Of a stretch of 64,000 nucleotides of DNA, positions 14,453 to 63,390 are shown piece after piece. Both the position numbers and the translations under genes were made by a program. The notes under the pieces were generated by a model. It did no database searches, was not told where the DNA came from, and was given only the letters and a program-made list of their open reading frames with translations. Within the stretch, counting starts at the first letter, position 1. Every line of letters begins with the position of its first letter. This DNA is from Leucoraja erinacea (lineage: Eukaryota). Location: NCBI RefSeq assembly GCF_028641065.1, contig NC_073389.1:32984001-33048000 (forward strand), read 5' to 3'.

Positions 14453-14478
14453 CATAATCTATGCATAATAGATGTTAC

Positions 14479-38567: not shown

Positions 38568-38702
38568 GATCCAGAGGATGAAGTCGTACCATTTAGACAC
38601 CAATCACGTGTCTGGTGCTGGTGTATGTGTCTTGGACTAGCTCTCATGTTGTCCGGTGTTGTGGTTGGTGGTGCATATCTCTACCGATATTTTATCGTAC
38701 AG
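38568..38702 (+). CDS. ITM2B: ITM2B coding exon 2 (transmembrane segment)
   Basis: DPEDEVVPFRHQSRVWCWCMCLGLALMLSGVVVGGAYLYRYFIVQ; AG/GT boundaries, 135 bp. Confidence 0.97.
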
Positions 38703-38821
38703 GTAGGAGAATGACTAAGGGGATTAATCTTTGTTTTTTACTCTGTACAAATGTGTATGATGCTGTTCATGAATGACTACTAGTATTGATTGCTTGACAA
38801 TTTGATGCACAAATTTGAGTA

Positions 38822-39206
38822 CAGGTTTTCCACCGTTTTGTTTTCATCTACCAACTGGTGGTTTGGCACTTCCTTTAATCCGGACAAAATTACGAGAGTG
38901 GACTTGATATCCCCCCCCGTTAGTCCCCGCCAAAAATGTGGCACCTAGGCTGGGTGAGGCAGCTGATCTTTACTTCATCGAGTTTGCCGCGGTGGTTTGG
39001 TAGGTTGAGTTTGCCCCCCTGCTGCTGGGGCACTGGAACTCTGTCACGGCCAGAGCTGGCAGATCCTTTTCCATACTCGACATTCGAGGCTGACTAGACG
39101 GACCATTCTGGTACCACTTCTGAGGCCATGACCTCTGTTGGTTCGGCAAAACGGATAATCCAGAAAGACTGGAACCAAGGGTGCTGAAAAATCGGTGGTG
39201 GACCTG
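38822..39206. mobile_element. Tc1/mariner-type MITE, relative of 17393-18188
   Basis: Ends cagg..ccacc / ggtggtggacctg; internal similarity in the opposite orientation. Confidence 0.7.
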
Positions 39207-39349
39207 CATTTTTTTTTCCTGAATGAATAAACTGATACAATAATAACTACTTTGTCTATACAAATGTACCTGTCATATAACACTTAGTCTATTGTTTGCA
39301 ACTTAAAGTTAGTAGCCTCAAAATATCAAGGCGTTCTTCAGCATCTATG

Positions 39350-40209
39350 TAGGTATGTTACAAAACCTACCTGAATCGTCATTGGGAATCTGCCCTCAGC
39401 CATGTCCGCGATTTTGGCGCTGTTTGGAGGGGGCGGGTTTAAAACGCGATTTTTACTAGGCTGTACTAATCGCACATGTTCAGCCTAGTAAATCATTAAC
39501 GAAAAATCGCTGCAAGACCCGGTCGCAAAAGGTATTATTAGTTTTATAGGCCTCGATAATATAGTTCTAATAGTTTTTAATTTACTGTCTCATTCCGCAA
39601 CCTCTCGCAGCCCCATGGTTTTATAAAGCAAACAATTAAAGGTATGTACCTTATTTTTACATTAAATGGGGCATATATATAACCCTGAATATCAAGTTAT
39701 CTATAGCGAGTAGTTCATTTTGGGCTTTTTATATCCCGCAGTATTTTTCTCGGCATTTGAGGCACTAATCCAGCGCGATGTCAACGTTCTAAACCAGCGC
39801 GTTCCACATGAACCCACTAGAAAGCCGATTTAAATGGGCATTTATTTACAGCAATTGAACACTAAATTCCTTCCATTTGGCCTATAAGTTAATGTAAATT
39901 AGATATAAAAATCATGTTATATTGCGAATTATTTGTGAATAATCTTTGGACACTTAGGCTATTTAAAAATGTTAATCTTTCCTTAAGAAATGGGCTTTTG
40001 ACTATCCAAGATCACAGCTTTTTTGTAATGTCCATTGAAAATCAATAGGGAACAAGATGCTAATTTCCGAGTATGAAAATGGTCATAACTTTTTTAATAC
40101 GAGATATGAAAGTGAATTTGGTGTCAAATTAAACTTATTGTTATGCTTTATCTGATGGGATAAATTGCAGACTTGAGTTTTTAAATCTCAAAATTTTGTA
40201 ACATTGCTA
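39350..40209. mobile_element. Non-autonomous TIR DNA transposon with 7-bp TSD
   Basis: TIR TAG..ATGTTACAAAA at both ends; atctatg duplicated at 39343-39349 and 40210-40216; inserted in a Penelope-derived fragment. Confidence 0.8.
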
Positions 40210-41001
40210 ATCTATGGAGGTGACGTTTCGGGTCGACCAGAAAGGTCACCTATTCCTTCGCTCTATAGACGCTGCCTCACCTGCTGAGTTTCTTCGTAAA
40301 CAAAGTAGTTCTTCAACTCGCATTACGGTGATGCATAGAGGGTGTGGCAAATATTTAAGACTGAGAAATGAGTTGGCAGGTTATGGTAGGCAAAATGAGG
40401 AAATGGTGTTCAAATCATGTACGAACAAGCAGGCAGAGATGTTAAAACAAAACCAGAAAATTCTAGAAATACTTGAGGCAGGCCACATCTTTGGGAAGTA
40501 AAACTGTGATCACCCAACCAAATGTAAATAATGCAATGGCTTTGTGCAGGCACGGAAATCGCTGTCAAAACATGGGGAGGGACAATATTTCTTGATGGCC
40601 GCACGCGCGCGAGGTTTCGGCCGTGGGCCCTAGGACTGGTAACATCGACAACTGACCTGGTTGGTGACCGTCTCCGAACTCCGGCAACAGCAGCTTCGTC
40701 CTCCCCGAATCGTGGGGCTTCAATCGGCGTGTTCGTGGGGGCTTCAACATCGGGAGCCTCGATCGCCTCGAAGCATCAATTTGACCGTGGGGCGGTGGAA
40801 GATCCCGAGGTCGATTTTAAGTTGCACAGGGCCGGGCGATTAAAGGCCCCGCGAACAGGCCGATTCAAGCTCCACTCCATGATCTTTACTCCGCCAGGAC
40901 GTCTCCCTCCTACATATCACCGCGATCTATTCTCAGTCCCACCACCCTACTTCCGCCTCTGACCGACACCTCCCACCTCCAATCATCTCGCTGAATCATC
41001 A

Positions 41002-41052
<51 letters not shown>

Positions 41053-41274
41053 ACTGCCTGCTGACTGATGTCTCTCTTGTCAAATCTGTACCCTTGATCA
41101 TCAGTCCCACCCCCACTGTCTCACCGAAAGTGGAGATTTTTAATAGATTTTTTTTTTCTCACAGTTTTAAAATCCAGTTTACAAAAAATGGGGAGTATCG
41201 TCCCCTGCTTCTCAAAACGGGGGGGGGGGGGGGGGGGGGAACATGTGCCCCCCCCCCCCCTGTTTTTCTCCCTG

Positions 41275-41640
41275 TCTTACTTTTGATGAAATTCAGCGAG
41301 CAAACGCGATAATTCCCGATATTTTGGATCTTTAAATCTCCACGGCAAATGTCTGCTAAGCACTTCCGCTGTTTTTCCACCTTCAGTTCCCTCTTGTAAT
41401 TATTACCTTACTTTCTATCTTTTTTTGCCTGAAAATTTAGGTTGCTATGCTTCACGGTCACCCCGACTAGCACAGAAAGTTTCAGCTCAAAAATCGGCCA
41501 TTTTCCATGTTTTTAATGGGTGTGAAAGTGCGTGTTTCCCCATTCACTAACATGTACCGAAATGACATATGTCCTCCAGTTAAATTTTTCGGTCACGTGA
41601 GGGGGGATCTACGCTCATTTGACCTTTGGTGAAATCACCC
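41275..41640. mobile_element. Single arm of the TATA-target palindromic transposon family
   Basis: Closely similar to 25690-26052; ends gaaatcaccc|tata. Confidence 0.85.
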
Positions 41641-42046
41641 TATACTTCTAACAATATTTTATTGTAGTCAAATGTTGCATGTTGCCTGTAGATAAATCAA
41701 TTTATTTACTGGAAACTGTCATGACCATCCATATTTGATGTTTAAAATGGATAATTGCCGTTCATTACTTTCATTTGGTCTATGCATATCTCTTCTGCAA
41801 CAGTTAATTTGTCGTGTTCATTTGGCGCAATTTAGGATGTGATAAATAGCAACAATGCTTACTACTGAAGTAACTCTGCTGTAACATTGTTACAGAGATT
41901 GAATTGGGGTTCTCTCAATTCTGTCAAGTGTTCTTATTATTTCCTGTTTATAGATGACTTCTTTCCTTTGCAGATAGATCCCACAATTTTAATAGGAATA
42001 TAATTGAAGTTTAATATTGGTTTTCTTGTGTTAATTTTTTTTCTAG

Positions 42047-42256
42047 GAAGGTGAAGTTTTCTTCTGTGGTCTCAAGTACAGTGATCCTAAAGACTATCTT
42101 GTCCCTGATATTGCTGCTGATTCACAAGTAGCTCCATACCAATCTATTGAAGAAAATATTTGCATTTTGGAGGATGATGAAGTTGAACTGATCAGTGTTC
42201 TTGTCCCAGACTTTGCTGATGGTGATCCAGCAGATATTGTTCATGATTTCCACAGG
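42047..42256 (+). CDS. ITM2B: ITM2B coding exon 3
   Basis: EGEVFFCGLKY...YQSIEENICILEDDEVELISVLVPDFADGDPADIVHDFHR; AG/GT boundaries, 210 bp. Confidence 0.97.
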
Positions 42257-42409
42257 GTATGCACTAATTGCTACATTTGAGCATTAAATTTTGTTTCGTT
42301 CACTTTTATATAGCTTTATTTTTCAACTATTTTAAATCAAACATTTTTTTACTCTATATTATAATGTGTATCTTTGCATGAGTTTATTAAAATAGATTTT
42401 CTTTCCTAG

Positions 42410-42565
<156 letters not shown>

Positions 42566-42601
42566 TAATGGCACAATGGGTCTAATGACAGTTTTTTAGA
42601 A

Positions 42602-42915
42602 TGTCTCATGGATTTAGTTCTCGATGACTGTGGATCAGATGGTAATCTATACGCACCCACGAGCTCTCCACGAGACAATCAATGCCGTCGAAAGATGAAT
42701 CTTCCAAAAACAGTCTCTTGATTAATAGTTTCTTTATTGTAGAACATTTCAATCGTGCTCGTGCATGGTCGAAAACTATTGTCTCTTCCCTGATCTTCTT
42801 CGAACTAAACTCCTTGGGAGTCTGCACGAGAATCCCATCTGCAGACTACGTATAAATCGCACCCACATAATTGCAGGCAGAAAAAATGTAAAGGTAACTG
42901 GTTATAGTTATAACA
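42602..42915 (-). mobile_element. Possible solo LTR
   Basis: TG...CA bounds, minus-strand AATAAA near 42733 and TATA-like site near 42850, CpG-richer than its flanks; no TSD found. Confidence 0.3.
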
Positions 42916-43547
42916 TACTGAGTTAAGCTAAATGGCTACTACAATAGGATAAAAGATGTGTTGTCTTGTTGCTAGTTCAGATGGAATCTGGAGATGCTTA
43001 AGTTTAGAAAGCATATACAAGCTTTTTTTCTTGAACGTGGCATGACTTTGGAATTGGACCGTGAACTTCCCCTCTGCTTCATGTGGTTTAGAAAAATCTT
43101 AATTTGAATAGTATTACAGCTACTAAAGTTAGAGCATGGACTATCAGCTCTTAAACTGTTTTTATGATTATCTTTCTGTGTAGATGGTAAGAGTAGATTG
43201 GTAAATTGAATATCTCTTGGAGAAAATGTATCCTCGAATGGGACTCGGAACAGTGATCTGTTGGCACAGGACCCGATGGCATAAGTTTTGGAATTCTTGA
43301 AAAAGGATGCATTAGTTGTGATATTCTAAAATTTCCTAGATTCTGAAATTATCCAGTTCACTTTTTTGGTCTGGATCCTTGTGTTGCCATTATTACTTAA
43401 TTTGCATGTTAATAATTTAATATTCATATTGCTGAACGTCACTCTGTTGTGTTTAGCTAAGGTCACTGGATGGTTGAGGGAATTAGTAATTTTGAGTATC
43501 AAGTGCCTAGCATACTAACTTTAAAATATCCTCAATTACTTGAACAG

Positions 43548-43698
43548 GCTGGCACCTATTTGCCCCAGTCTTACTTGATCCACGAAGAGATGGTGGTTAC
43601 TGATTATATTGAAAATGTGGATGAGCTTGGATTTTTTATTGCACGTCTTTGTCATGGGAAGAAGAGCTTCAAGCTTCAACGTAGAGATCTTGCAAAAG
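43548..43698 (+). CDS. ITM2B: ITM2B coding exon 5 (BRICHOS domain)
   Basis: AGTYLPQSYLIHEEMVVTDYIENVDELGFFIARLCHGKKSFKLQRRDLAK; AG/GT boundaries, 151 bp. Confidence 0.97.
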
Positions 43699-44029
43699 GT
43701 AACTTAATATATTTTGTGCAGTTTTGATGTAACAGTTTTTTTTAAACTCTACTCAATTTAACCGTATAAATTTAAAAGTATTAAATTGTATTATGTCCAT
43801 GTATGAAGTGTCTTTAAAAATTCAGTTATTGTCCAGTTACACTAACTTGTCTGTTTCGTCAGTTCCAATTGTGCATAATTAGTGGTCTTTTTTTTTAATG
43901 TAATAGATCCATTCTTGATTTTTGCACTACATATTCCAGATACAGGGATAGCACAATTGATTTCTCTCAACTCTCTTCCAGCACTTGATTTATTTATTAC
44001 AAGTACAAATTATTGTCTTTGCTATTTCA

Positions 44030-46195: not shown

Positions 46196-47360
46196 GAAAA
46201 CAAGTCAACTAATTTTCTTTTGAGTTAACATGTCTGCTCTTACAGTATTGAGGTTACATTATTTTTATCACAATTGACACTGGTAAGTAATTTACTTAGC
46301 AAAAATTGAGCCAGAATACAGTCGACCCCTGCATTATAGCTGTTCAGGTAAAGGAAATCGGCTCTTGCAGAATTTGGAAACCACTACCCCGAACATTTGA
46401 GATACAAATGACACTTGTTCTTTATAGAAAATCAGAATAAGTAGCATGTTTCTTGGATCATCCCCTCCTTTCCCCCCGCCCTCACCTCCCAACCCCCAAG
46501 TAATGTGCGGAGGTGGATTTTGAGAATTGGTTTAAACATGGAATGGCACTGAGCTCAAGTAAATGTGTTCAAGACCACAGAGAAAACTCCTTTCAATCAA
46601 CTACCCATCTGTAGGGGAGGTGACAAAAATATAGTCATTTGGTTTGGAGGGGGTGGAAGCTAATTGTCTTTTCATTGATTGCTAAATGGATACAGAGACT
46701 GGCAAATGAAATTTGTAATTTAATGCTAGTTGCTGTCACGTGTGTGGTTGACAGTTTTGTTTAAGGCAAAGCAAAAAACAAACTGCTGAAGGAATTTGGT
46801 GGTTTAAACAGCATCTGGGTGGGAGTAGGGGAGGGGTTAGAAATTGTCAGTTCTGTCAATAATTCCTCCTGACAGATGCTGCTCGACCCTCTTCCTCCAG
46901 TTTTTTGGTACTTCACATTCCAGTGACCAGCCAACAGTTTTTCTCTCTAGACAAGTAAAAAAATTGTCTAAGAACCCAAATATAAATGTACCTTGGATAT
47001 CTTAAATAAGGAATAATAAAAATGAAATTTTGAGTTTGAAACTCTGTAGAATGAAAACACCCAGAAAAGCTTGCAGGCCTTCCTCATTAAATTCAACCAT
47101 TTGCACCCTTTTGTCTTCTCTATCTGGAGTCTTGGTTACTATCTCTATTCCAACCCCATTCCTTGTGGTGCAAATAGTTGGAGAGAGCAAGATTATTTAA
47201 GTATGCTGAATTGTTCATTATTCATCCGACTTATGGTTCATTTTCTTGGCTTTGAGGGATTTGCTATTTTGTGGCATGTTGAATGGGAATTTTGTGCTAC
47301 AGTTATGAGGTAAGCAGCATTTGCCATTTAACATTTTTTTTTTTCTTTTTCTTTTCTTAG

Positions 47361-47858: not shown

Positions 47859-48033
47859 AAAATGTAAATGGTTCTGTATGTACTGAATATTTGCTGAACA
47901 CCTTTAACAAAAATATCCACTGTAGTTGCTCAGTTTGGACCCATCTAGTGCATAGCTTGGTGAGGGCTGTTGGAGAAAAACTGGAAAACCCAGATGAAGC
48001 TGTAAAATGCAGATGAGCGGTCACTGAAACGAG

Positions 48034-48244
48034 GATAGACAAAAAGCTGGAATAACTCAGCGGGACAGGCAGCATCTCTGGAGAGACGGAATGGGTGACA
48101 TTTCAGGTAGAGTCTGAAGAAGGATCTTAACCCGAAATGTCACCCATTCCGTCTCTCCAGAGATGCTGCCTGTCACGCTGAGTTACTCCCAACTTTTTGT
48201 GTCTATCTTTGGTTTAAACCAGCATCTGCAGTTCCTTTCTACAC
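48034..48244. mobile_element. Penelope-derived inverted-pair element with degenerate hammerhead
   Basis: Inverted arms 48034-48105 and 48130-48207; gtctgaagaaggatcttaacccgaaatgtc core. Confidence 0.85.
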
Positions 48245-48677
48245 TGAAACTAGGATGTTGTGAACTTGGCATTTCAGAGTATATGTGGAATGAGAAGGAT
48301 CAATGTTACAAATAAGTAACCGTGAAGCAGAATTGGCATGTTACAAACAGGAAAGTGAATTGCTTAAAATTATTGAATTCTTTATTGAGAATGGAACATG
48401 CATAGATGGAAGATGAGGTGCTATTCCTCAACTTGCATTGGGCTTCATTGAAATATTCAGGAGACCAACGCTTATTGCCCATACTTCATTAATCTGGAAG
48501 GTGATGAGCCACAAGTGTAAACTGCTGCAGTCCTGTTAAGGTAGTCAAGCAGCCCTGTTGAAGAATTCCAGTAATGTTCACAAAGGAACAGCAATGTATT
48601 AACATATCAGGCCAGTGTGCAATTCGAAGAGGAGCTTTCAGGTGAATGGTGTTTGCATGCACCTGAGACACTTGTCC

Positions 48678-49101: not shown

Positions 49102-50659
49102 GTCCTTGGCTTTTGAGATTATCCTTGAATGATGCTATTGGAGGAACTGTATTTTGTATGTAGTGCACAATTGAGCCATTATCTGCTGGTGGATAGGATA
49201 CCCATCAAGCAGGATACTTTGTCCTGGATGTTGCAGCTGCACTTATTTGGGATAATGTGTGATCCTTGCTTGATTGAAACCCTCCTTGTGTATTATTTCT
49301 CATCGTGACCCCCCCCCCCATAATAGTTTCTAAATTCTTATCCTCCACCAATGTTTCGTACACCTATTTTTCTTTCATTATATTCTTTTATGTAAGGATT
49401 CATGGCTTTGGCCCTCTACCTGCCTTTTTTGTGATTCTAGCTTCCATCTCTCTGTTCCTTTTATAGCAGCTGCAGATCCTTTCTCATTCTTTGAAATGTT
49501 AGAAAATCTACTCATTCTATGTTAGAAATTCTACTTAAAATTATTCTTGGCCCTTACCCTGTGCTCAGTACTTTTTTTAAATAGCATATCTGTCCAAATG
49601 TTCTCCCACTGATTTTTGAGGTCACAGCTATCATACACAGCATTGCCTTTCTGGAACAAAACACAAATAACTGTGTGTGTGTGTGTAAGTAAGGCAACAT
49701 TTGTGGAGGTAATGAACAACCGATGCTTTGGTCTGAAGGAGGGTCCTGACCCAAAACGTTGCTATCTGCTTCCTCCACAGATGTTGCATGACCCAGAAGT
49801 TCTTCCAGCACTTTGTTTTGCTCTATATTCCAACATTTACAGTTCCTTGTGTCTCCAGTAACTTTCTAGTTTAAGAAATGATTACATTTTGAAAACTCCT
49901 TTAAATTAACCCGAAGAATATTTGGCTATGCATATTTTGAAATATTTGGAAATGCGCATGCCATTTCCCTGCACACTTACTTGTCACTATTTGTTTTTAA
50001 ACTCTTAACGAGATAAATTCTGTCCATGCCAAATTAAAGGATATCCACTTTTCCAATTTTAATCAGCACAGCCTCGCCTTTGTTTCCTTCTTGGAGTTCT
50101 GAATTGCAGGTGCTAGAAATGCAAAATAGAAGCAAAAATAAGTGTAAAATTACTGAGTGAGACAAATGGAGAGAAAGTGTGTGATAAAAGTGCAACCCAA
50201 AAGTGTCACGATACCAATTGCTTTATAAAAACAAAATTGTCAACAAGAGGTGAAAAAAAGAAATCTAAAAACTCTCTTGACAGAGGAGAGAGGGCGGTTA
50301 CCTGAAGATGCCAAAGTGGCAACATAGCCGGATAGAAGGCTAGATGCTTTTACTTGATTCTATGTTGGGCATCGTTGCAGCAACATGGGAGGATGGAGAG
50401 GCAATACAGAATTAAAGTGACAAGCTTCTGAAATTTCAGTCATCTTGCAGACTGGTGTTTTCAATGGGTGGCGTTCTCTGCATTTGTCCTGCTAAATACT
50501 GAGCTGCTTCTGTTACGCTGTTTAAATTCTCAACCTTCTCACCAGCATGATCCTTAAACTATTCAGACTGTTCTGTGACATTTTTAGATACAACTTCTGA
50601 CTTTCCAGCACTTGTTCTACAGTCAGAACCTTCCGCATTTCTGCACGGACTTCAAATAT

Positions 50660-51193
50660 TGAGGTAGACAAAAATGCTGGGGAAACTCAGTGGGTGAGGC
50701 AGCATCTATGGAGCGAAGGAAATGGGCAACGTTTCGGGTCGAGACCCTGCTTCAGACTGATGTGAGGGTGGGGGGAGGGGCGGGAAGAAGAAAGGAAGCG
50801 GCTGAGACAGTGGGCTGAGGGAGAGCTGAGAAGGGGAGGAGAAAGCAGGGACTACTTGAAATTAGAGAAGTCAATGTTCATACCACTGGGGTGTAAACTG
50901 CCCAAGCGAAATATGAGGTGCTGCTCCTCCAATTTACGGTGGTCCTTACTCTGGCCATGGAGGAAGCCCAGGACAGAAAGGTCAGATTCGGAATGGGAGG
51001 GGGAGTTGAAGTGCTGAACCACCGGGAGATCAGGTAGGTTAATGCAAACCGAGCAGAGGTGATGGGCTAAGCGATCGCCTAGCCTATTCTTGGTCTCACT
51101 GATGTAGAGCAGCTGACACCTAGAGTAGCGGGTGCAATAGATGGGGTTGGAGGAGGTGCAGGTGAACCTCTGCCGCACCTGGAAAGACTGCAA
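50660..51193 (-). mobile_element. Penelope-like element fragment: GIY-YIG endonuclease C-terminus plus 3' pLTR with hammerhead
   Basis: ORF 50852-51193 FTCTSSN.IYC..C.LLYI.ET...RL..H...HFN..H...E..LIF.L..L.P.GMN is a Penelope GIY-YIG domain; hammerhead-like core on the same strand at 50728-50755. Confidence 0.9.
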
Positions 51194-51424
51194 ATATTCA
51201 GAGCTCTTCTTTGCTCTGTCAGTAAATGGTATCCCTTTCCTGCACTAATTAAAGCCTTAAACCCTGTCTATTACATTGTTTAAGCTGTTACAGTCACTCT
51301 CACCTGCAAGCTTTGAACTCTAGCACTCATGCATGGTCTTTGATACCTGAGGCTGCCGTGCTCGTGCCTTCCCAGTAAACGTTCATTGGCTCTTTCTGTT
51401 GAACCCTTAAAATCTCCTAATATG

Positions 51425-51845
51425 TCATGGAGCAGCTGGGCTTGTACACTTTGGAGTTTAGAAGGATGAGAGGGAACCTCATTGAAACATATAAGATTGT
51501 TAAGGGTTTGGACACGCTAGAGGCAGGAAACATGTTGGGACCAGAACCAGGGGCCACAGTTTAAGAATAAGGAGTAAGCCATTTAGAACGGAGACGAGGA
51601 AACACTTTTTCTCACAGAGAGTAGTGAGTCTGTGGAATTCTCTGCTTCAGAGGGCAGTGGAGGCGGGTTCTCTGGATGCTTTCACGAGCGAGCTAGATAG
51701 GGCTCTTAAAAATAGTGGAGTCGGGGGATATGGGGAGAAGGCTAGAACGGGGTACTGATTGGGGATGATCAGCCATGATCACATTGAATGGCGGTGCTGG
51801 ATCTGAAGGGCCAAATGGCCTACTCCTGCACCTATTGTCTTTTGT
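51425..51845 (+). mobile_element. CR1 3' fragment
   Basis: Closely similar to 9710-10130 and 21415-21830. Confidence 0.9.
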
Positions 51846-51882
51846 CATTACTGCACTGTCAATTAAGCTTTATTATGCTATA

Positions 51883-52155
51883 TGTTTAGTTTGGAAATAA
51901 AGCATAGAAATAGGTACTTCGGCCCACAGAGACCACCCCGATCATCGTTCACACTAGTTCCATATCTCACTCCCCACACATTGCGGGCAATTCAAAGGCC
52001 AATTAACCTATGCACCCGCATGTCTTTCAGATAAGGGTGGAAACCAAAGCACCCAGAGGAAAACCATGGGAAAAAGGTACAGCAGAGGTCAGATGTGAAC
52101 TCGGGTCCCTGGCACTGAGAGGCAGCACATCTACAAACAACACCACTGGGCCACC
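51883..52155 (-). mobile_element. Degenerate V-SINE
   Basis: gtttagttt tail and gaactcgggtccctggcactg head as in 17716-18023. Confidence 0.65.
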
Positions 52156-53599
52156 TATCTTTAATCTTTCACTACTTCCTTCTGCTCAGTGTTTCCACTT
52201 TGAAGGAAATTACCCAAAATTTGGGAAATTCTGGTTGTCTTCTGGTAATTTTAGGGAAATTAAATAATTTCAGGAAATTTCCGCATCTGGCCCGCGAGGA
52301 GGTGTAAAGGTAATACATGCAGCACTACCAGTTTGGCGCGCAAAGATTTAAACAGAGCACTGTCATTTTAACGCGTGGGAATTTAAACATAGAGCTGTTG
52401 GCTGCAGCGCTATGGGCTTAACACATAGCGCTGTGGCCATAGCGCTATGGGTCACAGACTGTTCAGGAAAATTGTCGTATAACAATGAGTCTGGAATTTT
52501 CTTTCTCAGTGGAAGTTGAGCCTTTGATTATTTTTCAGGCAGTGGTAGAATTCTGGATAAGGATAGTGGTGAAAGATTACCAGTGGGATTGCAGTTACAT
52601 TGGGATTGGCCTTGATTTTACATAACAGTGGGTGGGCTCAAGGGGCAGAGTGGGATGGATAGAGGGAGGGGGGGAGAAAGGGAAAGAGGGAATAAGAGGG
52701 GGAGGGGAAAAAAAGGAAGGAGAGGGATGCGGGGGGAGAGGGATGCGGAGGGAGCAAGAGACGAAGGGAGGGAAGGAGAGTGGGAGTGAGCAGAGAGACA
52801 CATGAGAGCAGGTTGAAAAAACGAAGATAACGAAAGCTGTTGGAGGCAACGAAAGCTGAATTGCATAACACTGTACAAGTGAGTGACAGAAGCAGGCAGA
52901 TACGGTGTAGTTGCATAGATCTGTTTTGCCTTGTTCTTTGTGTTAACATGTGCCCGCAAAAAAAACCCAACAACAAAAAGCACGCAGGAAGCATTTTGTA
53001 AATTTCAGGAAATAACAAATTCCAAAAAATTTGGGGATTCTATTTCAGGTTAAAAAAAAAAATGAAATGTGGAAGCACTGCCTCTGCTGCACTTATTAAA
53101 CTCCCACAGTTTCCTCTAACTCTCGGGCTCTCTCCTGTACTCTTTGAACTCTATGATTCCCTCTCTCATTCACTATCTTAATTTTTGTTGTTGTTTAAAC
53201 AGGAATAGTTACACCTGCACAAAAATGATGCACAATGGTTTTCTAAATCTATGTTGAGGAACTAAATGGGGAAAAGATTAAATTGGGTCTTGTGCAATTA
53301 AAGTACTCATTGATAATTTTGACGTAATTGAGCATTTTGGAAAGAATTATCATAATTGGTAGAATTTTACAGTGAGTTAGGTAATATTGATCAGTCTGAA
53401 ATTGGAAAATACATTGACTGATTTGAGTGTTAAGGCAATGATGAGCGTTAAAAAAAAAATACTCCAAGGCTCAAAGACTGGGGAAAAGTGGTTGATAGAA
53501 AATGAGGGGAAAAATAATTGCAGGTGCTGGATATCTTAAAAATAGAATATGCCATCAAATCAGGCAGCATTTCTGAAAATAGAAACATCTAAGATCCTT

Positions 53600-55570
53600 C
53601 ATCAGAACTGGGGGAAAAAGAGATAGTGGAGAAAAATATGCGGTGAAGAAAAAGTAGTCCATTCATGACAGGTGAAATAAAATATAATATTAAATCCAGG
53701 GAAAAAACTATAAATATGTTTGAAACACCTGAAGGCTTGAGGATTCTCAGTATTTTAAAACAGTAAAGAAATACCAAAACCTTGATTGAGAAAGTCAAGG
53801 TAGAACAAGAGTAAATGAGCAAGAAACATAAAAAGAAACTTGTGCTTCCATTGGTGTGCAAATAAGGAAAAGACTGGTGTGTCTTTAAAAAAAAAAAAGG
53901 TGCTTTAGACGGATGCAGGAGAATTTATCGAGAGTAAGAAAGTGATAGAAAAATTAGAAAAAAAACTCAGACTGCCAGAAATACTAGAGAAACAAGAATT
54001 CAGCAAGAATAGGCAACTGAAGAAAATAAGTATTTAAAAAGAATTACTAGAGGTTGATAAAACTAAGGTTGGTAAATTCTAAGAAGCCAATGGGCTGTAC
54101 CAGAACATTATAAATTAAGTAGCTATAAAGTTAGTAAATGATTATCATTTTCACAAAAATCAGCAGAATCTGAAATTGTTTCTATGGAATGTTTTCTAAA
54201 AAAATAAATAAATAAAAAGTATGTGAGAGAAAATGGGGAATTACTGACCCATTAGCCTAACTAATGTTACCAACGGGGAAAATGTTGGAGACATAATGAT
54301 GTAATAACAGAATATTTTCAAATGAATAATAGAATGAGTCGGCATGGATTTATGGGGACAAAATCATGTTTGACTGGAGTTGTTTGAGAATGTGACCTGT
54401 ATAAATGATAAGAGGGAATCGCAAAATAAGCTGCAATTGGATTTTTAGGTTTTGATAGATCCCATACATGTGGTTGGTTAACAAAGTTGGAGTTTGGACT
54501 AATGTACTGACATAGATTGAGAATTGATTAATGGAGCCAAGTGTAGGAATAAACACAGCTGTAATTTCTACATGATGCAACCAAAATGTACAAAAATGGC
54601 CTTTAATAAAATCTGACAATGTGCACTTTGACCACATGTGATTTTTTTTTTTTCTATTACAAATCTCAAATTGTTGAGTACAGAGGCAAATAAATGATGG
54701 TCTTTGTCCCAAACATTATGAAGGGTGCTGTACTTCAGGTCATAAAAACAGATAATCATGTTTTAATGGCAAGAGAGGGCGGTGCTGATGGGTGAACTTA
54801 TACACATCCCTGAAAGCTAGGCGATTTAGGAAGGGAAACGATGTGTAGGATCAATGAGCAAATTTCAGAACAGGAGTACAGGTGTCTTTTTTGCAATTAC
54901 AATAGGGTGTTAAATGTAGTTTTACTCTCCTTAACCAAAAATCTATCGACTTGCCAATAGTTCAAGGAAAATTCACTGGACGAATTCACTTAATTCATGG
55001 GAGGTTTGTCTCCTCATATGGCAAACCTATTATATTAACTTACTAATATAGTAGGTTTTCTACATTAGAAGACCTAGCTAATGTAGGTGTAGTAAAAGCA
55101 CGTCTCCTAATGTGGCAAAGCTACCATATTCCTGGGATGATAGATTTGCCCCTTTAGGAAACTAGACAAGGCCAGTTGTTTAGAAGAATAAGAGATCTCA
55201 CAAAAAACAGAATTCTTAAAATGATCAATGTTATGTATGCAGGGAAGATGCTTCCACTAAGTCAGGCATCTCAACCCACGAATCAGTTACAGAAAATGCC
55301 ATTTAGGATGAAAAGATATGTGCTCTCATACTGGTGAATCTTTGGAATTCCCTATCCCAGAGTACTGTGGAGATTCAGTCATTTACTTCATTCAAGGGGT
55401 GGGAGATTGCAACCTTCACGTGGTCCACCCTGTTTCGACGAATGCAATCAACCTGGCGTGCACAATCAAATAAGATCAAATTGAACAAGTTGTTCTACAA
55501 CTATAGTCTGTGCACGCCATACGCAAGAAGACTTCATTAGAGTGGATTTCTGAATATTAAGGGTTCCAAG
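53600..55570 (+). mobile_element. Old, highly degenerate CR1 with nested insertions
   Basis: Remnants of NY.PISLT, HGF...KSC.T and VNLWNSL motifs; Tc1-like end at 54540-54732. Confidence 0.6.
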
Positions 55571-55985
55571 GGACACGTGGTTAATATATGAAAGTGGCGT
55601 TGAAATGGAAAATAAAACTAACACTGATACGTGGTGGATTAGATTCTCTTACGCTCTTCACTGACCACTTTCCATGCAGTTCGACAAAGTACACACAACA
55701 GTACAACACAAATAGGCTTATAATCGTAATTTATGAGCCAAGTAATTTTTGCAACATGAGAAATTTGGTTTGGCATACAGTCATAACAAGAAAGCAACAG
55801 GCCACACAACTACATAAAATGGACACAAACATCCACCACAGCGTTTCCGCCATATTCCCCACTGTGATGGAAGGCAATAAGGTCTTATCTTCTTACCTCC
55901 AGCGGTCGGGGGAGTCGAACCATCCGCAACCGGCGATCGAGCTCCCTCGTCGGGACGATCTATACCTCAATACCTGTGCTGAATA

Positions 55986-56725
55986 GGGAGGTTTCACGGA
56001 AATCGGGTCATGACCCATACTGTTGCGACGCTACTCCAAATGGAGTACACGCGATGAACGGCAGGTAAGCACTTACCATTGTTTCCAGAGTAGCGGGCCC
56101 GTTAAAACCCGCCGAAATTGTCAATTTTTGCGATGTAAATAATTATGGAAATCAGGATAAACGTGTGAGACATTTAGCCTACTTCAAAATTCCAAAAGTG
56201 AGGAGAAATTACGGTTTGTAAATTTTTTTAAATCGCCCATGGTTCTCGTGGGGTTTTACATACAAAAAGAAAACGCATCTGAAGAAAAAATTACAGCCAG
56301 ATTTATGACTTCTGAAACTTTTTAGATACCAAAGGAATCAAGAAAAACTCAAATAATGCCTTACCGTTGATGAAATGCAGTGAGCAAACGCGATAATTCC
56401 CAAGATTTTCAATTCCGATATCTGCGCGGCCAATGTTTACCAAGCACTTTAGCTGCTGTTGTCCCTTCAGCTCTGCTTCTCTTTACCTTCATTTCGCTTC
56501 ACGTTTGGAATTCTAAAGTTGGGTACATGTCCTTCACACTTACCCCAACTTCCGCAATTTTTTTTCAGCGCAAAAATTCAACATTTTGGCGGTTTTTAAC
56601 ACATAGGAAAGTACGCGTTTCTAGCATTAATAACATATGCCGGAAGTTACGGATGTCCTCCAAGATGGATTGTGTGGCTCCGTGCGTCAAGCCCTATGAC
56701 CCAGTGACCTTACGTGCAACCCCCC
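55986..56725. mobile_element. Asymmetric member of the TATA-target transposon family
   Basis: aata|GGGAGGTTTCACG ... CGTGCAACCCCCC|tata; shares gatgaaat.cag.gagcaaacgcgataattccc with the palindromic element. Confidence 0.7.
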
Positions 56726-57254
56726 TATACGACGCCAAGTTAAACTAATCATCTCTGCCTGCACTTGATCTATGTCCCACTATTCCCTGCATATCCATGT
56801 GCTTATCTATATCTCTTAAATGCATTTTCATATCAGCCTCCACCTCCACTCACAGTGTGTGCCAGGCATCCACCTGTGCGTAAAACAAAACTTGCCTACA
56901 CATTTAAATGTTGCCCTCTCACCTTAAAACTATGCTCTCTAGTCTGACATTTGCACCATGGAGAAAAGGTTCTGACCATCTACCCCTATTTATACCTCTC
57001 GTAAATCTGGACCCTCACCAAAGCCTCCACATCCTTCTTGTAACGGAGCAAACAGAACTGCACCCAATACGTCAAATGGGACCTAACCAAACTCAAATGA
57101 AGCTGCAAAATACTTCCCGAGTCATATTCAATGCCCCGACCGATGAGACACCTATTTCATCAGAGCAATATTCACCATTTACAAAAAAACAGGCTTATAC
57201 CAAATGTTCGGATCTCCCTTCTAGTGAAATAAACCATCCAATCTTCTACAGCAG

Positions 57255-57570
57255 ATAATATGAATATTGATTTCTCAAACTTCAAACTTCCCTCTCCGTC
57301 CCTCCCCCACCCCAGTTCTCCGGTTAGCTTCACTGTCCTTCTGATTAATTTTACAGTTTGTCTGCCTCCTTGTCATCTTCCCACTAGCTAACAATGAACC
57401 ATTCCGCATTTCCTTAGCATTCGCCCGCTTTATCTGTCGTTTTCACACCTTACCCTTTCGTATCTCTAGACTCTCAGTATGAAGAAGGGTCTCGATCCCA
57501 AACGCCACCCATTCCTTCTCTCCAGAGATGCTGCCTGACCCGCTGAGTTGCCCCAGCTTTGTGTGTGACT
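57255..57570 (+). mobile_element. Penelope-like element 3' fragment
   Basis: Starts with MNIDFSNFK coding (same as the end of ORF 50852-51193), then pLTR with a degenerate hammerhead at 57478-57510. Confidence 0.8.
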
Positions 57571-57572
57571 AG

Positions 57573-57795
57573 GGTTACACAGAAAAGCTGGAGAAACTCA
57601 GCGGGGGCAGCAGCATCTATGGAGCGAAGGAAATAGGCAACGTTTCGGGCCGAAACCCTTCTTCAGACTGAAGAAGGGTTTCGGCCCGAAACGTTGCCTA
57701 TTTCCTTCGCTCCATAGATGCTGCTGCACCCGCTGAGTTTCTCCAGCTTTTCTGTGTAACCTTCGATACTCCAGCATCTGCAGTTCCCTCTTAAA
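57573..57795. mobile_element. Penelope-derived palindromic element (94-bp arms, 1-nt spacer, plus tail)
   Basis: 57573-57666 and 57668-57761 are reverse complements with one mismatch. Confidence 0.9.
57639..57695. ncRNA. Back-to-back pair of minimal hammerhead cores, one on each strand
   Basis: CUGAAGA-A-GGGU(UUCG)GCCC-GAAA-CG-UU at 57668-57695 (+) and 57666-57639 (-). Confidence 0.6.
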
Positions 57796-57873
57796 AACTT
57801 TGTGTGTGACTATCTTCGGTGCAAACCAACACCTCTCCCCTACACAAGCTTCCACAGTCACCGGCGGTGCTAA

Positions 57874-57944
57874 GGAAGTGACGTAGAGATAACGCAACCA
57901 GAGACGGCAGTGCACGAGCCGGAAGCGGCGAGCGTTTGGCGCGG
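57874..57944 (+). promoter_or_regulatory. RB1-type core promoter: ETS/ATF composite, second ETS site and E2F site
   Basis: GGAAGTGACGT 57874-57884, CCGGAAG 57919-57925, TTTGGCGCGG 57935-57944, within a CpG island. Confidence 0.7.
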
Positions 57945-58040
57945 TTTGGAAGCTCAGTCGGTTTGGGAGAGCGGTGGTGACTTTCAAACGTTTGAAGTAC
58001 CGGTCTCGAGCCTGCGGTCGCTGGCCATTGAGCTCGCGCT

Positions 58041-58105
58041 ATGCATCCCAAGCACTCGAAGAAAGTCGCCGTGTCTGACTCTGAAGAAAGCAGCTCTCCT
58101 ACCAG
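58041..58105 (+). CDS. RB1: Probable retinoblastoma protein coding exon 1
   Basis: MHPKHSKKVAVSDSEESSSPT(R) resembles the MPPK..RK start; phase-2 AG|gtgag donor as in human RB1 exon 1; MED4-ITM2B-RB1 synteny and promoter motifs; exon 2 not seen in the window. Confidence 0.6.
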
Positions 58106-58984
58106 GTGAGAGCGGGGGATAGACCGATCCAGGCGCTGGTATCGGTGGCCTGAGCGGCAAAACAGGAAGCCGGGGCTTAGTCGCCACCAACAAGTAGCTT
58201 TTATGTCAGCGGCCCGAGTCGCTGTGGCTAACTCGCCGCATTGTGTGGATGTCCTGGCTAGAGCGGCTCGGCGTGATTACGGCGACCGCTATTGATTGGT
58301 TTCCGTTTTGGTGCTGTCACCAACTCAAACAACGCTATGCTGTCCCTACTTTTTTTTGTTTAGAGGGTGTATGTATTTTCAGCCTTTATATTACCACGGC
58401 TGTTATAAAGCACTTTTTAAACACCATTAAATACTTAATTGAAAATTTGAAAAAGCATTGTTGATCCAACATTTTGCATCGGCACAGTTTATTGTTGTTT
58501 ATGTCGGAACATTATCCAAGTCCATTAGTTGTTTTTTTGCAAAATGTGCCAAGAGGAGTGAAAGGTGGTGACCTTGCACTGTCGCCTTCCATCATAGTTC
58601 CCATGTTTGGGTCGCTCCTTGCGCTTACTGCTGTATCTTTGAGATGGACTGGCCTGTCGAATACTAACCACAAAAGTGTGAATTGCTTTGAAATCTCCAC
58701 CTGGTCTTATCTCTAGTACATGCAATTAGTTTAATTATCTTAAATGTGCTAATCAGATAGATTTATAGCCTAATATGGCACTCGTCAACGTCAGTCTTCT
58801 AAATGCTTAGTTTCCCTTGTGGAAATAATAGAAATATTTTACAGCTGTTGAGGTACCAGGAAAGTGCCTGCCAGTTTTCACTCGTACACCAGCAAATAGA
58901 AATGTGAAATAACCAACTAATTTGTTTTCATTATATTGGGTGAACAGCACATATTCCCCAAGACATATTTCCCTGCTGGTATAT

Positions 58985-59870
58985 GAGTCATTGAGTGATA
59001 CAGCGTGGAAACAGGTTCTTCAGCCCAACTTTCCCACACCGGTAAACAAAGTCCCAGCTACACTAATCCCACTTACCTGCGCTTGGTCCATATCCCTCCA
59101 AACCTGTCCTATCCATGTACCTGTCTTAACTGTCTCTTAAACGATGGGATAGTCCCAGCCTCTACTACATCCTCCGACAGCTTGTTCCATACACCAACCA
59201 CCATTTGTGTGGAAAAAGTTGCCCCTCGGATTACTATTAAATATTTACCCCTTCACCTTGAACCTATGTCCTCTGAGGCACAGCTACCTAGATTTACAGT
59301 TAAAAAAAAAGATAGAAACTAAGGTAAATTAAAGAGGAAGCTGAAGGTGCCAATCCAGCGGAAGTGAACAGCGGACATTTGCCATGGAGATTTAAAGGTC
59401 CAAAATATCGGGAATTATCGCGTTTGCTCGCTGAATTTCATCAAAAGTAAGGCATTATTGATAGTTTCTATCTTTTTTTTTTACTGTAAATCTAGGTAGC
59501 TGTGCCTCACGGTCACCCAGACTGGCACAATGAATTGCAGATCAAAACCTGGCCGTTTTCTATGTTTTTAACGGGTGGAAAAGTGCGTGTTTTCCCATCC
59601 ACTAACATGTACCGGATGTCTAGCATGTCCTCCACTTGAGATTTTCGGTCACGTGGGTGCGGATCTACGCTCCAGTGACCTTTCGTGAAATCACCCTATA
59701 AGCTCACACCCTCTAGTCCTGGCAACATCCTCCTAAATCTTTTCTGAACCCTTTCAAGCTTGATAATATCTTTCCTATAACATGGTGCCCAGAACTGAAC
59801 ACAATATCCTAAATGTGGGCTCACAAACGTATAACTGCAACATGACCTCCCAACTTCTATACTCTTATTG
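58985..59870 (-). mobile_element. CR1 3' fragments interrupted by a TATA-target element (59275-59696)
   Basis: Minus ORF with [26 protein letters not shown]; nested element ends gaaatcaccc|tata and has short internal inverted arms. Confidence 0.75.
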
Positions 59871-60232
59871 TCTTTTATGCTTTCTGACCAGGCAGCCACA
59901 TGAGGTTAACAGGGCAAAGACTGCAGCATTCCTTTGGTGCTGTACTGGAGTTTTGGCCTACTCGTGTATATTTTAGTTCGCTGAGCATTTCTCACTGTTC
60001 CTGTAAATGCTTGCACAATCAACGCAAGATTTCAGCCCTGCTCTATTCTTTATGCATGTCATTTCTGAGCAATAAAGCCCAAGAGTGTGTGTGCACAATA
60101 ATGATCAACCATCTTATTGAATTGTTTACATGTAAACATGTAAATCTCTAATAACTTTCTCAACCATGCTCAAAAACCATTCTCCTCGCATTCAGCAATA
60201 CATAGAACAGTAGAGCACACAAACAGATCCAC

Positions 60233-60460
60233 AGATAGATACAAACAGCTGGAGTAACTCAGTCGGTCATACAGCATCTCTGGAGAAAAGGGTGACGTTT
60301 CGGCTTGGAACCATTCTTCAGACCTCGTCAATCTGATGAGGGGCCTCGACCTGAAATGTCACCTATTTGTTTTCTCCAGAGATGCTGTCTTACCTGCAGA
60401 GGTTCTCCAGATGTTTGTGCATCTTCGGTTTAAACCAGCATCTGCAGTTCCTTCCTACAC
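60233..60460. mobile_element. Penelope-derived inverted-pair element
   Basis: Inverted arms; plus-strand core ctgatgagggcctcgacctgaaatgtc at 60333-60360. Confidence 0.75.
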
Positions 60461-60896
60461 AACAGGTCCACAGTGTCTGTGCCAAACATGATGCTTTTCT
60501 CATCTGCCGGCAAATGATCCATATACCTCATTCCCTGTACATCCATGTACCCATCTAAATATGACATTATGATTCAATTTCTATCTTGATCAGGCTGAAA
60601 TTGAAAGTTTATAAGGATGATTTCCAATTTGATCATGTGGGAAACGTAAAATCACACATTCCACTGTTCTCCATAAACATAATCTACAACCATTTATTAT
60701 TTCCTTCCACCATCTTATGATCACAATTGTTAGTAATATGAGCACAGTAACAGTGGGCCACCCGTACGCTCAAGTCTACCCTGTCATCCAATGTGGTCAG
60801 AACTGATCTGCACCAGATCTTGTTTTTTTTTGTTTCAGCACCCCATAACTCTTGGATGCCCTGATCTTTCAAAAAAAAAAAAATTATCTTTAAAGT

Positions 60897-60924
60897 CTGA
60901 AGAAGGGTCTCGACCCGAAACGTC
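60897..60924 (+). ncRNA. Minimal hammerhead ribozyme core in a Penelope-derived element (60893-61020)
   Basis: gu-CUGAAGA-A-GGGU(CUCG)ACCC-GAAA-CG-UC-ac; all core nucleotides present, predicted cleavage after C60924. Confidence 0.65.
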
Positions 60925-61604
60925 ACCTATTCCTTCGCTCCATAGATGCTGCCTCACCCGTTGAGTTTCTCCAGCATTTTTATCTACCTTCGATTTTTCC
61001 AGCATCTGCAGTTCTTCACAAAAGCAGTTATGTTGAGTATTTGGCCTGAATACTGATTTAAAGAAACAGGGCCCAAATGGAATGAAAGTCATGCTGTTAA
61101 GGATTGGAGCAGATGCAGAGATTATGTGGCTTAGAAAGGCAAGACACATTGCTAGAAAAAGCAACAATGTGTAATTTAATATGGTGGGCTGGGAAGGAGT
61201 GGTAGTTATCAACATGACTTATCAAAAAGACAAGTGTTGGCATTTCGATGTGAGAAATTACTGAAGTAGACATAGAAATAATATGTCGGAAATAATAAAT
61301 GTATTAATCACCATTGGTGCCTATTTTTTTGTTGACATGTTGTAAGGTGTTTTGATAAGTTAATCTTGTTACATGGATTAATGTTACTTTTTACAGGTTT
61401 TCTACTTTGAATCTTTGTATAATAGGATTTGTAAAGTAATTATTTACTTATGTTAATTTTCATTCTGTTTTAGTAAGCACTTACCATTTGTAAAAATTAG
61501 CTACTTTAATAACAGATTGAGTTGAGGATTTATTTTAATTAATTGTTCAGGATATGTGTGTCGCTGGCATCTCTAAATGCGTCATATCCAATTGCATTTG
61601 AGTT

Positions 61605-61974: not shown

Positions 61975-63390
61975 CTAGACTAAGTGGGACCCAATGGGTC
62001 CCAGTCACACAGTGGGTCTGGTCCCTGTTGAATAGCAGTGTGGCCAACTATTTGAGCAAATTCATTCCGGACTTCATTGAAATATCAGCCCCATTGCGCC
62101 AGCTTACACACAAAGACTCTGCTTGGATTTGACACGAGCAACAACAGACAACATTCGACACTCTTAAATGGCAGATGTCTGGTACTCCTACTCTGGCTTA
62201 CTTTGACCCTAATCGTCCGATTACACTTACTTGTGATGCCTCACAACACGGGCTGGGCGCTGCATGCCTTCAGAATGATAGCAATGGCAATAAGCCTGTT
62301 GCCTATGCCTCGCGCACCATGACTGAAACAGAACGACGATATGCCCGAATTGAAAAAGAACTGTTACCGGTTGTTTTTGCCTGCAAGAAATTCAAGGATT
62401 TCATCTTTGGCCACACTGTCACAATTGAAACTGACCACCAACCTCTGACCATCAATCTCTGATTTTATTGTGATGACTGTGTCCTTTATCCCTTCGTCCT
62501 GTATGGAGGACCTGGTTGCCCACACTGCTACTGACAGTACCTTAAGGTCTCTAACCTCCGTCATTAAGCGCGGCTGGCCAGACAAACACTATAGCGTTCC
62601 GCTGGCAGTCCGGCCCTTCTTTGCTGTCCGAGATGAGCTAGTGGTGCAAGACGGCATTATTTTAAAAGGACACAAGGCCGTGGTTCCTGCTTCGCTGCAC
62701 CACCGGTATTTTAACGCTGATCAGGCAGGGCACCCAGGTGCTGAGGCCATTGTTTTACGGGCAAGAAGCATGTTTGTCACCAACAAAAGCAACCACTTCT
62801 TTCACATCCTGTACTAGCGCTCCCATGGTCTACAATCGCAGCTGATGTATTTGATTGGCATGGCAAACAATACCTGGTGCTCGTGGATTCTTATTCAGGA
62901 TGGTTTGACATTGATTTTCTCAGCAACCCCACTTCCAGCGAAGTGATTTCAAAGTTATTTCATCACTTTTCTGTCCACGGATCTCCACTCCACCATTAGC
63001 TTTTGGTCTCATGCAGCAGATCCCGGTCCAACTCCGGCTTCTGGTTCAACTCAGCGGCTTCTGGCTGGTCGTGCTGGGCGCCGCAGAAGCAGCAGGTGAG
63101 CCACTGACTCCCCGCAAACTGCTCAACACACTGCGCCCCTTCAGCTTTTTACTCACATCGCCGTGTTATTGACAGCGGGTTCCGGAAGGGGCGGATTTTA
63201 CGATTTTTAAACCTTCATAACTTTTGTACTATTTCACCGATCGGAACAAAACCTATTTGACTTGCAACAGAGGAGAATGGTGGTGAAAAATCGTAGCGCT
63301 ATAGGGGAAACATTTTTGCGCAAAGTTAATTATAACGCAGACCAAGATGATGGCCAAGATGAGAGTTTTAGTAATAGTGTAGAAGATAGA
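61975..63390 (-). mobile_element. Non-autonomous Helitron containing a Gypsy pol fragment
   Basis: Minus strand: A|TC...TATTACTAAAACTCTC 5' end at 63390, tgggaccca/tgggtccca hairpin 61985-62003, CTAG|T 3' end at 61975. Confidence 0.75.
62035..62995 (+). pseudogene. Ty3/Gypsy pol fragment (RT connection, RNase H, integrase pieces) with internal deletions
   Basis: LTCDASQHGLGA, PVAYASR, YARIEKELL, IETDHQPL, GHPG and LVLVDSYSGW motifs. Confidence 0.9.

Follow-up and report, generated by a model that had tools for sequence, protein, structure and literature searches.

The window considered here is a stretch of 64,000 nucleotides (nt) from Leucoraja erinacea (contig NC_073389.1, positions 32,984,001 to 33,048,000 of the forward strand). 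It holds a reverse-strand gene that we take to be MED4 from its motifs (span 11466-24560, exons at 11.5, 14.6, 15.7, 19.8 and 24.5 kb), the forward-strand gene ITM2B (span 28815-44000, starting at 28815 and with its BRICHOS exons at 42.4 and 43.5 kb) and, with its start at 58041 (58041-58107) on the forward strand, a gene that is presumably RB1. The last assignment, for which a protein search had only the 22 residues of the first exon and gave no confirmation, relies on an ATF word and on gene order, MED4 (-), ITM2B (+), RB1 (+) being, we assume, the order in other vertebrates. Copies of a short repeat that carries a hammerhead ribozyme motif lie in introns of all three genes and near the promoters of ITM2B and likely RB1, and in this their positions agree with the initial annotation of this DNA. 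The repeats appear to be short pieces of the pseudo-long terminal repeat (pLTR) of a Penelope-like element with a minimal hammerhead. Target-primed reverse transcription that was aborted is their likely origin, and the majority of them are probably inert today; to this reading we give a probability of roughly 85%.

To collect the repeat, we picked 12 window copies by hand and made a profile from them, applied at a threshold of E<=0.01; the 12 seeds match it by construction. The profile found 31 arms at 23 loci in the window, about one locus per 3 kb, and no arm in the reversed window at the same threshold. All positions listed in the initial annotation, which had counted some 15 or more occurrences, are among the 31 arms, and loci at 23.1, 46.8 and 53.5 kb were added. 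One DNA run and three RNA runs were aligned to positions 50630-51230 at 80% likeness, with 1-6% of each RNA run read. This gave 108,134 contig pieces from the DNA run and 9,817, 34,148 and 37,086 reads from the RNA runs. Contig depth summed over the core was ~230,000 times that of unique flank, a ratio that the tool warns is no true copy number and that we use as a rough sign of copies on the order of 10^5. Between 0.13 and 0.21% of the reads in the three RNA runs fell on the 50.6-51.2 kb copy, and 79-92% of these extended into other sequence. Pattern scans for related loci gave none in viral contigs and none in metagenome contigs, and a protein-based metagenome scan yielded 109 candidate stretches, none of which was confirmed.

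The frame at 51199-50855 (-) encodes the C-terminal end of a GIY-YIG endonuclease (115 aa) that aligns with homologues through a C..C..H..H (CCHH) motif. A search for longer proteins gave 10 matches among 83 candidates, the best four of which, from Leucoraja, Mobula and Rhinoraja, were 65-76% identical; with its best protein homologues in skates and rays, the element sits well with the elasmobranch host proposed earlier. Pfam returned no match for the 115-aa window peptide itself, and the GIY-YIG matches in the homologues P0002 and P0005 had E values of 5e-4 and 2e-3, below the curated cut-off. These two longer homologues contain the reverse transcriptase (RT) motif YIDD, and the close homologues P0001, P0002, P0004 and P0005 contain a CX4CXXC linker; both the RT part and the linker are cut off in the truncated window copies. 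A CX2-5CxxC linker between RT and endonuclease marks the Neptune and Nematis clades (PMC8557442; here and below, published systems are described from those parts of the cited papers that were available). Read from its sequence, the repeat represents the 3′ end (pLTR) of a Penelope-like element with a GIY-YIG endonuclease, whose homologues have a Neptune-type linker, and the endonuclease end, the homologues and the tails and target duplications described below bear out the Penelope origin first assigned to it. We take the clade to be Neptune rather than Nematis, an assignment made without an RT tree. The copies come from at least three different untranslated regions (UTRs), one of ~97 nt, one of ~190 nt and a longer pyrimidine-rich one. 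The gene model P0005, from the zebra shark Stegostoma, reads through into a Penelope 3′ UTR, and its last 11 residues match an in-frame reading of the window hammerhead at 8 of 11 places and back-translate to that hammerhead with U at position 7; from back-translation only, this is a hint of the motif in sharks as well. Among ray and skate gene models, several (P0001, P0004 and P0010) end in this endonuclease fragment and are likely annotation chimeras.

The hammerhead core consists of CUGANGA, GAAA and UH; the core and its numbering agree with minimal hammerheads already described (PMC4209133). A strict minimal-hammerhead descriptor (CUGANGA, 0-2 nt, stem II closed by G-C, GAAA, a palindromic 0-4 nt, U and H) matched the window five times, at 29332(-), 57666(-), 57668(+), 60321(-) and 60897(+), and gave no match in any of 200 dinucleotide shuffles of the window. 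A search with such a descriptor had been proposed for the motif. Rfam returned 14 matches in the window at E<=1, with no hammerhead family among them, and its microRNA matches were rejected as being simply palindromes. Intact cores had been reported at 29305-29332, 57639-57695 and 60897-60924. All three places were right, with the amendments that there are two cores within 57639-57695, on opposite strands, and that a fifth core lies at 60294-60321(-). The matches have the minimal type I core, a bulge before stem II and a palindromic 15.2-16.2. Stem I is 0-3 bp long in the five intact copies and 2 bp in native context, and is lost at the junction in two of the five (29332 and 57668); set against a helix I of 4-5 bp, it matches only as the 2-bp variant of Drosophila virilis type. 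The initial annotation was right about the hammerhead: it is of minimal type I, its stem III is CG and its stem I has 2 bp.

The motif had also been placed just 3′ of GIY-YIG coding ends at two loci. This is real at 50.7 kb; at 57.5 kb only the last ~10 codons are left, ~190 nt upstream of the motif. Both copies that adjoin reading-frame ends have broken cores, by A9 to C at 50749 in the 50.7 kb copy and by C3 to A, G12 to C and U16.1 to C at 57478-57505. Pairing was assessed in an alignment of 15 rows, one of them a 7-nt stub counted as gap, leaving 14 full-length rows. Stem II was said to stay paired, which holds only in part: 83.9% of its cells pair in these rows. Its variation is all one-sided or pair-breaking, with two-sided (compensatory) changes in none of the six pairs, and the covariation score (0.159) lies below the shuffle mean (0.172) and is reached by 381 of 500 shuffles. 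Because the sample is small and young, this lack of covariation does not reject the fold.

Head-to-head palindromes, which were missed in the first account of the repeat, make up 8 of the 23 loci, with a ninth at 40.2 kb that has a 16-nt arm. Direct repeats 11 nt or more in length, with no more than one mismatch, border 8 of 21 tested units, compared to 1.4% of 1500 random pairs; among these eight, the direct repeat at 53.5 kb is low-complexity. The target-site duplications measure 11-15 bp. In the four cleanest units (36.9, 48.0, 57.6 and 60.2 kb) the forward arm has a tail of 32-36 nt and the inverted arm lacks one, and many units read as duplication, inverted arm without tail, forward arm with a 32-36 nt tail, duplication. 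The Penelope insertion unit has been described as a pLTR with an adjacent inverted 5′-truncated pLTR, a 30-40 bp tail, a short duplication and a palindromic junction (PMC3846280; PMC8557442). Junction and arm length differ from unit to unit in the window, and the units belong to different sequence lineages.

The youngest unit, the palindrome at 57572-57797, has arms identical at 93 of 94 places around a 1-nt centre at 57667, intact cores at 57639-57666(-) and 57668-57695(+), a 36-nt tail on the forward arm and a 15-bp target-site duplication on the forward strand (57557-57571 on the left and 57798-57812 on the right). It was inserted into the tail region of, and splits, an older 3′ end of another UTR lineage (57257-57835, +), which comprises the last ~10 codons (57257-57290), a ~190-nt UTR and the broken hammerhead at 57478-57505. 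An older palindrome at 60235-60460 combines a descriptor-intact core at 60294-60321(-) with a broken core at 60333(+), between 13-bp duplications with one mismatch (60222-60234 and 60461-60473). The palindrome at 48037-48241 lies between 15-bp duplications with one mismatch (48022-48036 and 48242-48256), and a private T-to-G change and the loss of stem III (CG to TG) are common to both arms, which suggests either one template with a broken hammerhead or the copying of one arm from the other. The centre of the palindrome at 36952-37160 is eroded inside the core, and exact 14-bp duplications flank it (36938-36951 and 37161-37174). Asymmetric palindromes lie at 29234-29414 in the first intron of ITM2B (where the core 29305-29332(-) is intact but the junction has cost it stem I), at 18822-19019 in a MED4 intron (G12 to A; exact 11-bp duplications 18811-18821 and 19020-19030) and, old and with broken cores, at 49660-49849. 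The arms are least alike, at 29 of 46 places, in a very decayed head-to-head pair without a core at 46761-46931, and a short fold-back at 40213-40293 is joined at the TCGA palindrome of loop II.

The other copies are not inverted. The 5′-truncated 3′ end at 50662-51196(-) comprises the GIY-YIG C terminus (51196-50852), the ~97-nt pyrimidine-rich 3′ UTR, the hammerhead with A9 to C (50755-50728) and a tail-less pLTR body. A solo pLTR with a tail at 60894-61017(+) has the intact core 60897-60924 with a stem I of 2 bp and lies on the sense strand of likely RB1 intron 1. A solo copy with some native UTR and G12 to A lies in ITM2B intron 1 (38260-38388, +); another, at 30524-30619(-), is tail-less, starts at C3 and also has G12 to A; a third, at 30107-30210(+), has a tail, starts approximately at the cleavage site and is flanked by exact 13-bp duplications (30094-30106 and 30211-30223). 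Two adjacent reverse-strand copies (28128-28243 and 28266-28363) with broken or partial cores lie 450-690 nt upstream of the ITM2B start codon. A copy with the third, longer pyrimidine-rich UTR and a broken core lies in a MED4 intron (14870-15179, +), and a decayed copy of a related lineage at 53513-53606(-) (CUGAUGA, stem II, GAAA lost). The remaining profile matches are a decayed fragment upstream of MED4 (25140-25194, -) and further fragments at 7995-8058, 23139-23220 and 27044-27101.

We then considered where the arms stop. The profile begins at -5, and upstream sequence was judged native by eye and by its pyrimidine content (0.71-0.88 in five copies compared to 0.39-0.54 in non-native flanks). 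Among the 31 arms, 6 extend into native UTR, 12 have their 5′ end within -4 to +5 of C3, 5 in stem II or its loop (+11 to +16), 1 approximately at the cleavage site (+29) and 7 further 3′. More than half (17/31) thus stop at the hammerhead 5′ edge or in stem II, and 23 of 31 include sequence 5′ of the cleavage site. The 5′ ends are seldom at the cleavage site, so most insertions appear to have been copied from RNA uncut at the GUC/GUU site. The stops coincide with self-complementary words: the 57.6 kb unit is centred on TCAG.CTGA at the 5′ edge, the 40.2 kb unit is joined at TCGA in loop II, and at 48.0 and 49.7 kb the stops fall on the arms of stem II. In the aligned runs, depth dropped 8- to 15-fold just 5′ of the core, and depth at the reading-frame end was 24-43% of the pLTR peak; because the lineages have different UTRs, this drop overstates truncation, and loose ends at 50760 continue into another UTR. 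Joints of many different kinds are seen in the contigs.

The clustering of 5′ ends could instead mark an RNA boundary, with the CAG before U2.1 acting as a splice acceptor or TCAGT as an initiator and the processed RNA serving as template; in an extension of this explanation, an upstream exon could supply the missing stem I strand. The CAG precedes the core in all six arms with native upstream sequence, across at least three different UTRs, and in five of the six it follows a run of 71-88% pyrimidine, the sixth arm keeping only 11 nt. In D. virilis, a Penelope intron extends to the 5′ edge of a helix I of 2 bp (PMC4209133; intron PMC2377424), and one RNA run has a pile of loose ends with mixed flanks at 50757 (380 reads). 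However, the entire UTR is pyrimidine-rich anyway, and among 15 of 139 joint rows there was neither an RNA joint into 50756 nor a spliced read. Splicing from the nearest donor-like site, at the stop codon, would recreate that CAG context without extending stem I, and five further arms stop inside stem II, which suits microhomology joining. We consider a processed template unlikely; no reads supported either the initiator or the acceptor interpretation. One DNA contig skips 99 nt (50752-50852), but with 10 other letters in between this was rejected as a clean intron loss. A broader proposal, which we regard as quite unlikely, is that ~100,000 or more batoid hammerheads of one Penelope lineage would be gated by RNA processing. 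A conserved pyrimidine tract and CAG adjoin the catalytic core, and splicing or the element protein would complete the 2-bp stem I there; the same site would be a hot spot for the joining of twin cDNAs, and host splicing could switch on intact solo copies in introns.

On the reading that we prefer, of pLTR pieces left by abortive target-primed reverse transcription, the element protein would nick both DNA strands ~11-15 nt apart, and each nick would prime a cDNA, the two start sites lying ~35 nt from each other on element RNA that is largely uncleaved. Synthesis would stop early, and two cDNAs of the same sense would be joined by way of brief self-complementary words in the hammerhead region (at its 5′ edge TCAG.CTGA, within loop II TCGA, or the arms of stem II) to give head-to-head palindromes. 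The tail would be on one arm only because the two cDNA start sites lie ~35 nt apart. A single cDNA that snapped back on itself would produce the same units, and antisense self-priming, which has been proposed (PMC3846280), may also account for them. For an Anolis element, nicking and extension at both strands, two RT start sites bounding the tail and insertion into its own pLTR have been demonstrated in vitro, and hammerhead cleavage was unneeded for insertion in that system (PMC11167929). The position of the youngest window unit, in the tail region of an older copy, is one that the model for this element allows.

Conservation was used to ask if the ribozyme is kept in the inserted copies. In a base-matched test, 158 of 166 non-CpG core letters were kept compared to 154.4 expected from the flanks (P=0.17), or 130 of 138 compared to 127.2 expected when one arm per insertion was used (P=0.24). 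On the sequence side, the core was therefore no more conserved than its flanks, an outcome that the initial annotation had named as speaking against its proposal. G12, which lies in a CpG, was kept in 12 of 19 arms and non-core CpG sites in 55 of 76 (P=0.57), and A9 was kept in 95-97% of aligned reads, the same as flank site 50681 (among 40 of 242 variant rows). Folding with 110 or 140 nt of context gave a stem II probability of 0.0 for the four cores in palindromes and 0.28 for 60897, and the predicted stem I probability was at most 0.14 in every context. In wide context, four of the five intact cores lie in predicted fold-back hairpins of -103 to -205 kcal/mol. RNA ends at the GUC/GUU site had been suggested as a sign of cleavage; across 50630-51230 the three RNA runs showed no pile-up of starts or ends, and read depth did not drop at the cut site, in what is a weak test. 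The copies decay at the rates of flanks and CpG sites, and most are likely inert today and no longer cut RNA. Selection has probably kept the hammerhead only in the autonomous elements that served as sources. In these it would have weak activity, either dimeric or aided by the element protein, and once inserted it is a passenger. The idea that the family seeds introns and promoters with self-cleaving RNA is weak: copies do lie in introns and near promoters, but the core is no better conserved than its flanks and four of five intact cores are in hairpins.

Several points weigh against this reading. Raw conservation favours the core (158/166 compared to 639/723 flank letters, P=0.007, 19 arms); the excess was rejected after base matching, for which 11 lineage or old-CpG flank columns were removed by hand across the 19 arms. 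The lineage-marking changes (U-A to U-G in stems I and II; C or U at H17) are one-sided and all keep the fold, and the motif would therefore be functional in source elements, a pattern that fits selection in those elements only. Hammerhead junctions score too poorly in folding models, and cleavage by the Anolis ribozyme required protein (PMC11167929). Fragmented poly(A) and single-cell libraries, read at 1-6%, show 5′-OH and cyclic-phosphate ends poorly, which limits the RNA-end test, and the joining of cDNAs is a step that we infer.

A minority of solo intact copies might still cut host pre-mRNA as dimers in trans, and be weeded out of introns or co-opted there. There are five intact cores in 64 kb, one of which, 60897-60924, is the only intact and solo core in the sense of a host intron (likely RB1 pre-mRNA), and partners would be plentiful given the share of RNA reads on the 50.6-51.2 kb copy. 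Against this, in all 10 cases the predicted energy of the active dimer is higher than that of the best co-fold, by 8-27 kcal/mol, and the weak RNA-end test gave no pile-up. Published metazoan minimal hammerheads with a longer helix I were inactive as monomers and weak as dimers (PMC4209133). We therefore regard cutting in trans as very unlikely.

The initial annotation called the repeat a retrozyme-like family, which would be non-autonomous and spread as short self-cleaved circular RNAs. The units are short and their copy number is very high, as the contig pieces from a single DNA run indicate, and Penelope pLTRs are the reported origin of retrozymes, which are also reported in one sampled chondrichthyan (bioRxiv 2026.07.22.740005). 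The repeat also resembles non-LTR retrozymes in being short, non-coding and Penelope-related with a type I hammerhead (PMC7229834; bioRxiv 2026.07.22.740005). However, retrozymes are defined by tandem units of 150-450 bp, each with a hammerhead, of canonical type, and they are expressed as circles (same sources). The repeat here is dispersed and head-to-head with minimal cores, and none of the 43 tandem-repeat rows reported by TRF in the window involves the unit; the sole adjacent same-strand pair (28.1/28.3 kb) has broken cores. The canonical 6-bp helix I and loop contacts are absent, with stem I at 2 bp and no hammerhead match in Rfam, the copies grade into GIY-YIG ends, and only 1 of 31 5′ ends is at the cleavage site. 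No joint at the cut site was seen among 15 of 139 joint rows, from libraries unsuited to circles. The Penelope tails and target duplications, the unit-specific junctions and the lack of tandem units indicate instead that the units are truncated insertions of an autonomous element, and we hold spread by circular RNA to be highly improbable. That the ~200-bp palindrome is itself mobile, in the manner of a miniature inverted-repeat transposable element (MITE), and multiplied after it had formed is barely credible: 8 of 23 loci are palindromic, several with clean duplications, but junctions, arm lengths and lineages differ between units, the contigs have many different joints and the one-sided tail makes the ends asymmetric, unlike terminal inverted repeats.

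Minimal hammerheads are known from the pLTRs of metazoan Penelope-like elements, including Xena, Poseidon and Neptune of fish (Cervera and de la Pena 2014, PMC4209133). Those described there share with the window copies the type I core, the bulged base before stem II, G10.1-C11.1 and the palindromic 15.2-16.2, and occur mostly as solitary copies from truncated elements, with pairs on opposite strands. The stems differ, stem II having 4 bp and stem I 2 bp here and 7-8 and 4-5 bp in Schistosoma; the 2-bp stem I recalls helix I of D. virilis. With 4,000-9,000 copies reported in coelacanth and Xenopus (PMC4209133), the copy number here seems much higher. Endonuclease-positive Penelope-like units (PMC3846280; PMC8557442) have the same head-to-head arms, junction palindrome, one-arm tail and target duplication, but their duplications are 8-10 bp in rotifers compared to 11-15 bp here, and the units here are pLTR-only and very numerous. 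The Poseidon element PAc of Anolis carolinensis (PMC11167929) likewise has a tail bounded by two RT start sites, inserts into its own pLTR, shows no RNA-seq ends at the cut site and can dispense with its hammerhead for insertion. It belongs to another clade, its reading frame starts in stem II, and the homologues here have a Zn-finger-type linker. The pLTR minimal hammerheads, the dimer model and the weak activity are likewise in print (PMC4209133; review PMC6765202). A literature search found nothing on Penelope hammerheads in cartilaginous fish, on twin priming of Penelope pLTRs or on this family by title or abstract, with most subscription journals and Repbase outside its coverage, and cartilaginous fish are unnamed in the part of the main text of PMC4209133 that was covered, whose supplements list further species, among which there might be a shark or ray. 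For other animals, motif, fold-back unit and tail have all been published already, and what is new here is scale and resolution.

Further features lie between and within the genes. An almost perfect palindrome of ~740 bp between MED4 and ITM2B (25316-26056; outer arms of 206 nt at 100%, inner arms of 158 nt at 98%) has partial copies at 41273-41644, 56.0-56.7 kb and 59325-59699; it is likely a young DNA element of MITE type and is the cause of the top Rfam microRNA matches. Midway between the two genes, a CpG-rich patch (26809-26839) to which no gene was assigned has a tandem pair of CAAGATGGCGG words, which we take to be YY1-like, and is possibly the promoter of a non-coding RNA or an enhancer. 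ITM2B intron 1 contains a near-intact CR1-type LINE (32389-36351), in which ORF1 has a GDSL/SGNH esterase domain (Pfam) and the endonuclease-RT frame is broken once near 35.3 kb. An inverted pair of 32/64-bp tandem repeats (13738-14195) lies inside a MED4 intron. Other retroelement fragments at 12014-13339, 30909-31953 and 62050-62820 comprise two RT pieces, presumably L2/Rex-like, and one LTR-type RT-RNase H piece.

The young palindrome at 57572-57797 lies ~75 nt upstream of the ATF word (57874-57884) in the likely RB1 promoter. This word is like that of the human RB1 promoter, where an E2F site adjoins it (PMC4706693); the E2F site is absent here. The palindrome is a candidate regulatory polymorphism near the ATF site. 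For the Penelope family, the set of copies could settle how inversions form, by twin priming or snap-back, and whether truncation follows ribozyme cleavage, which here it seemingly does not. It could also settle whether there is selection against intact hammerheads in the sense strand of introns.

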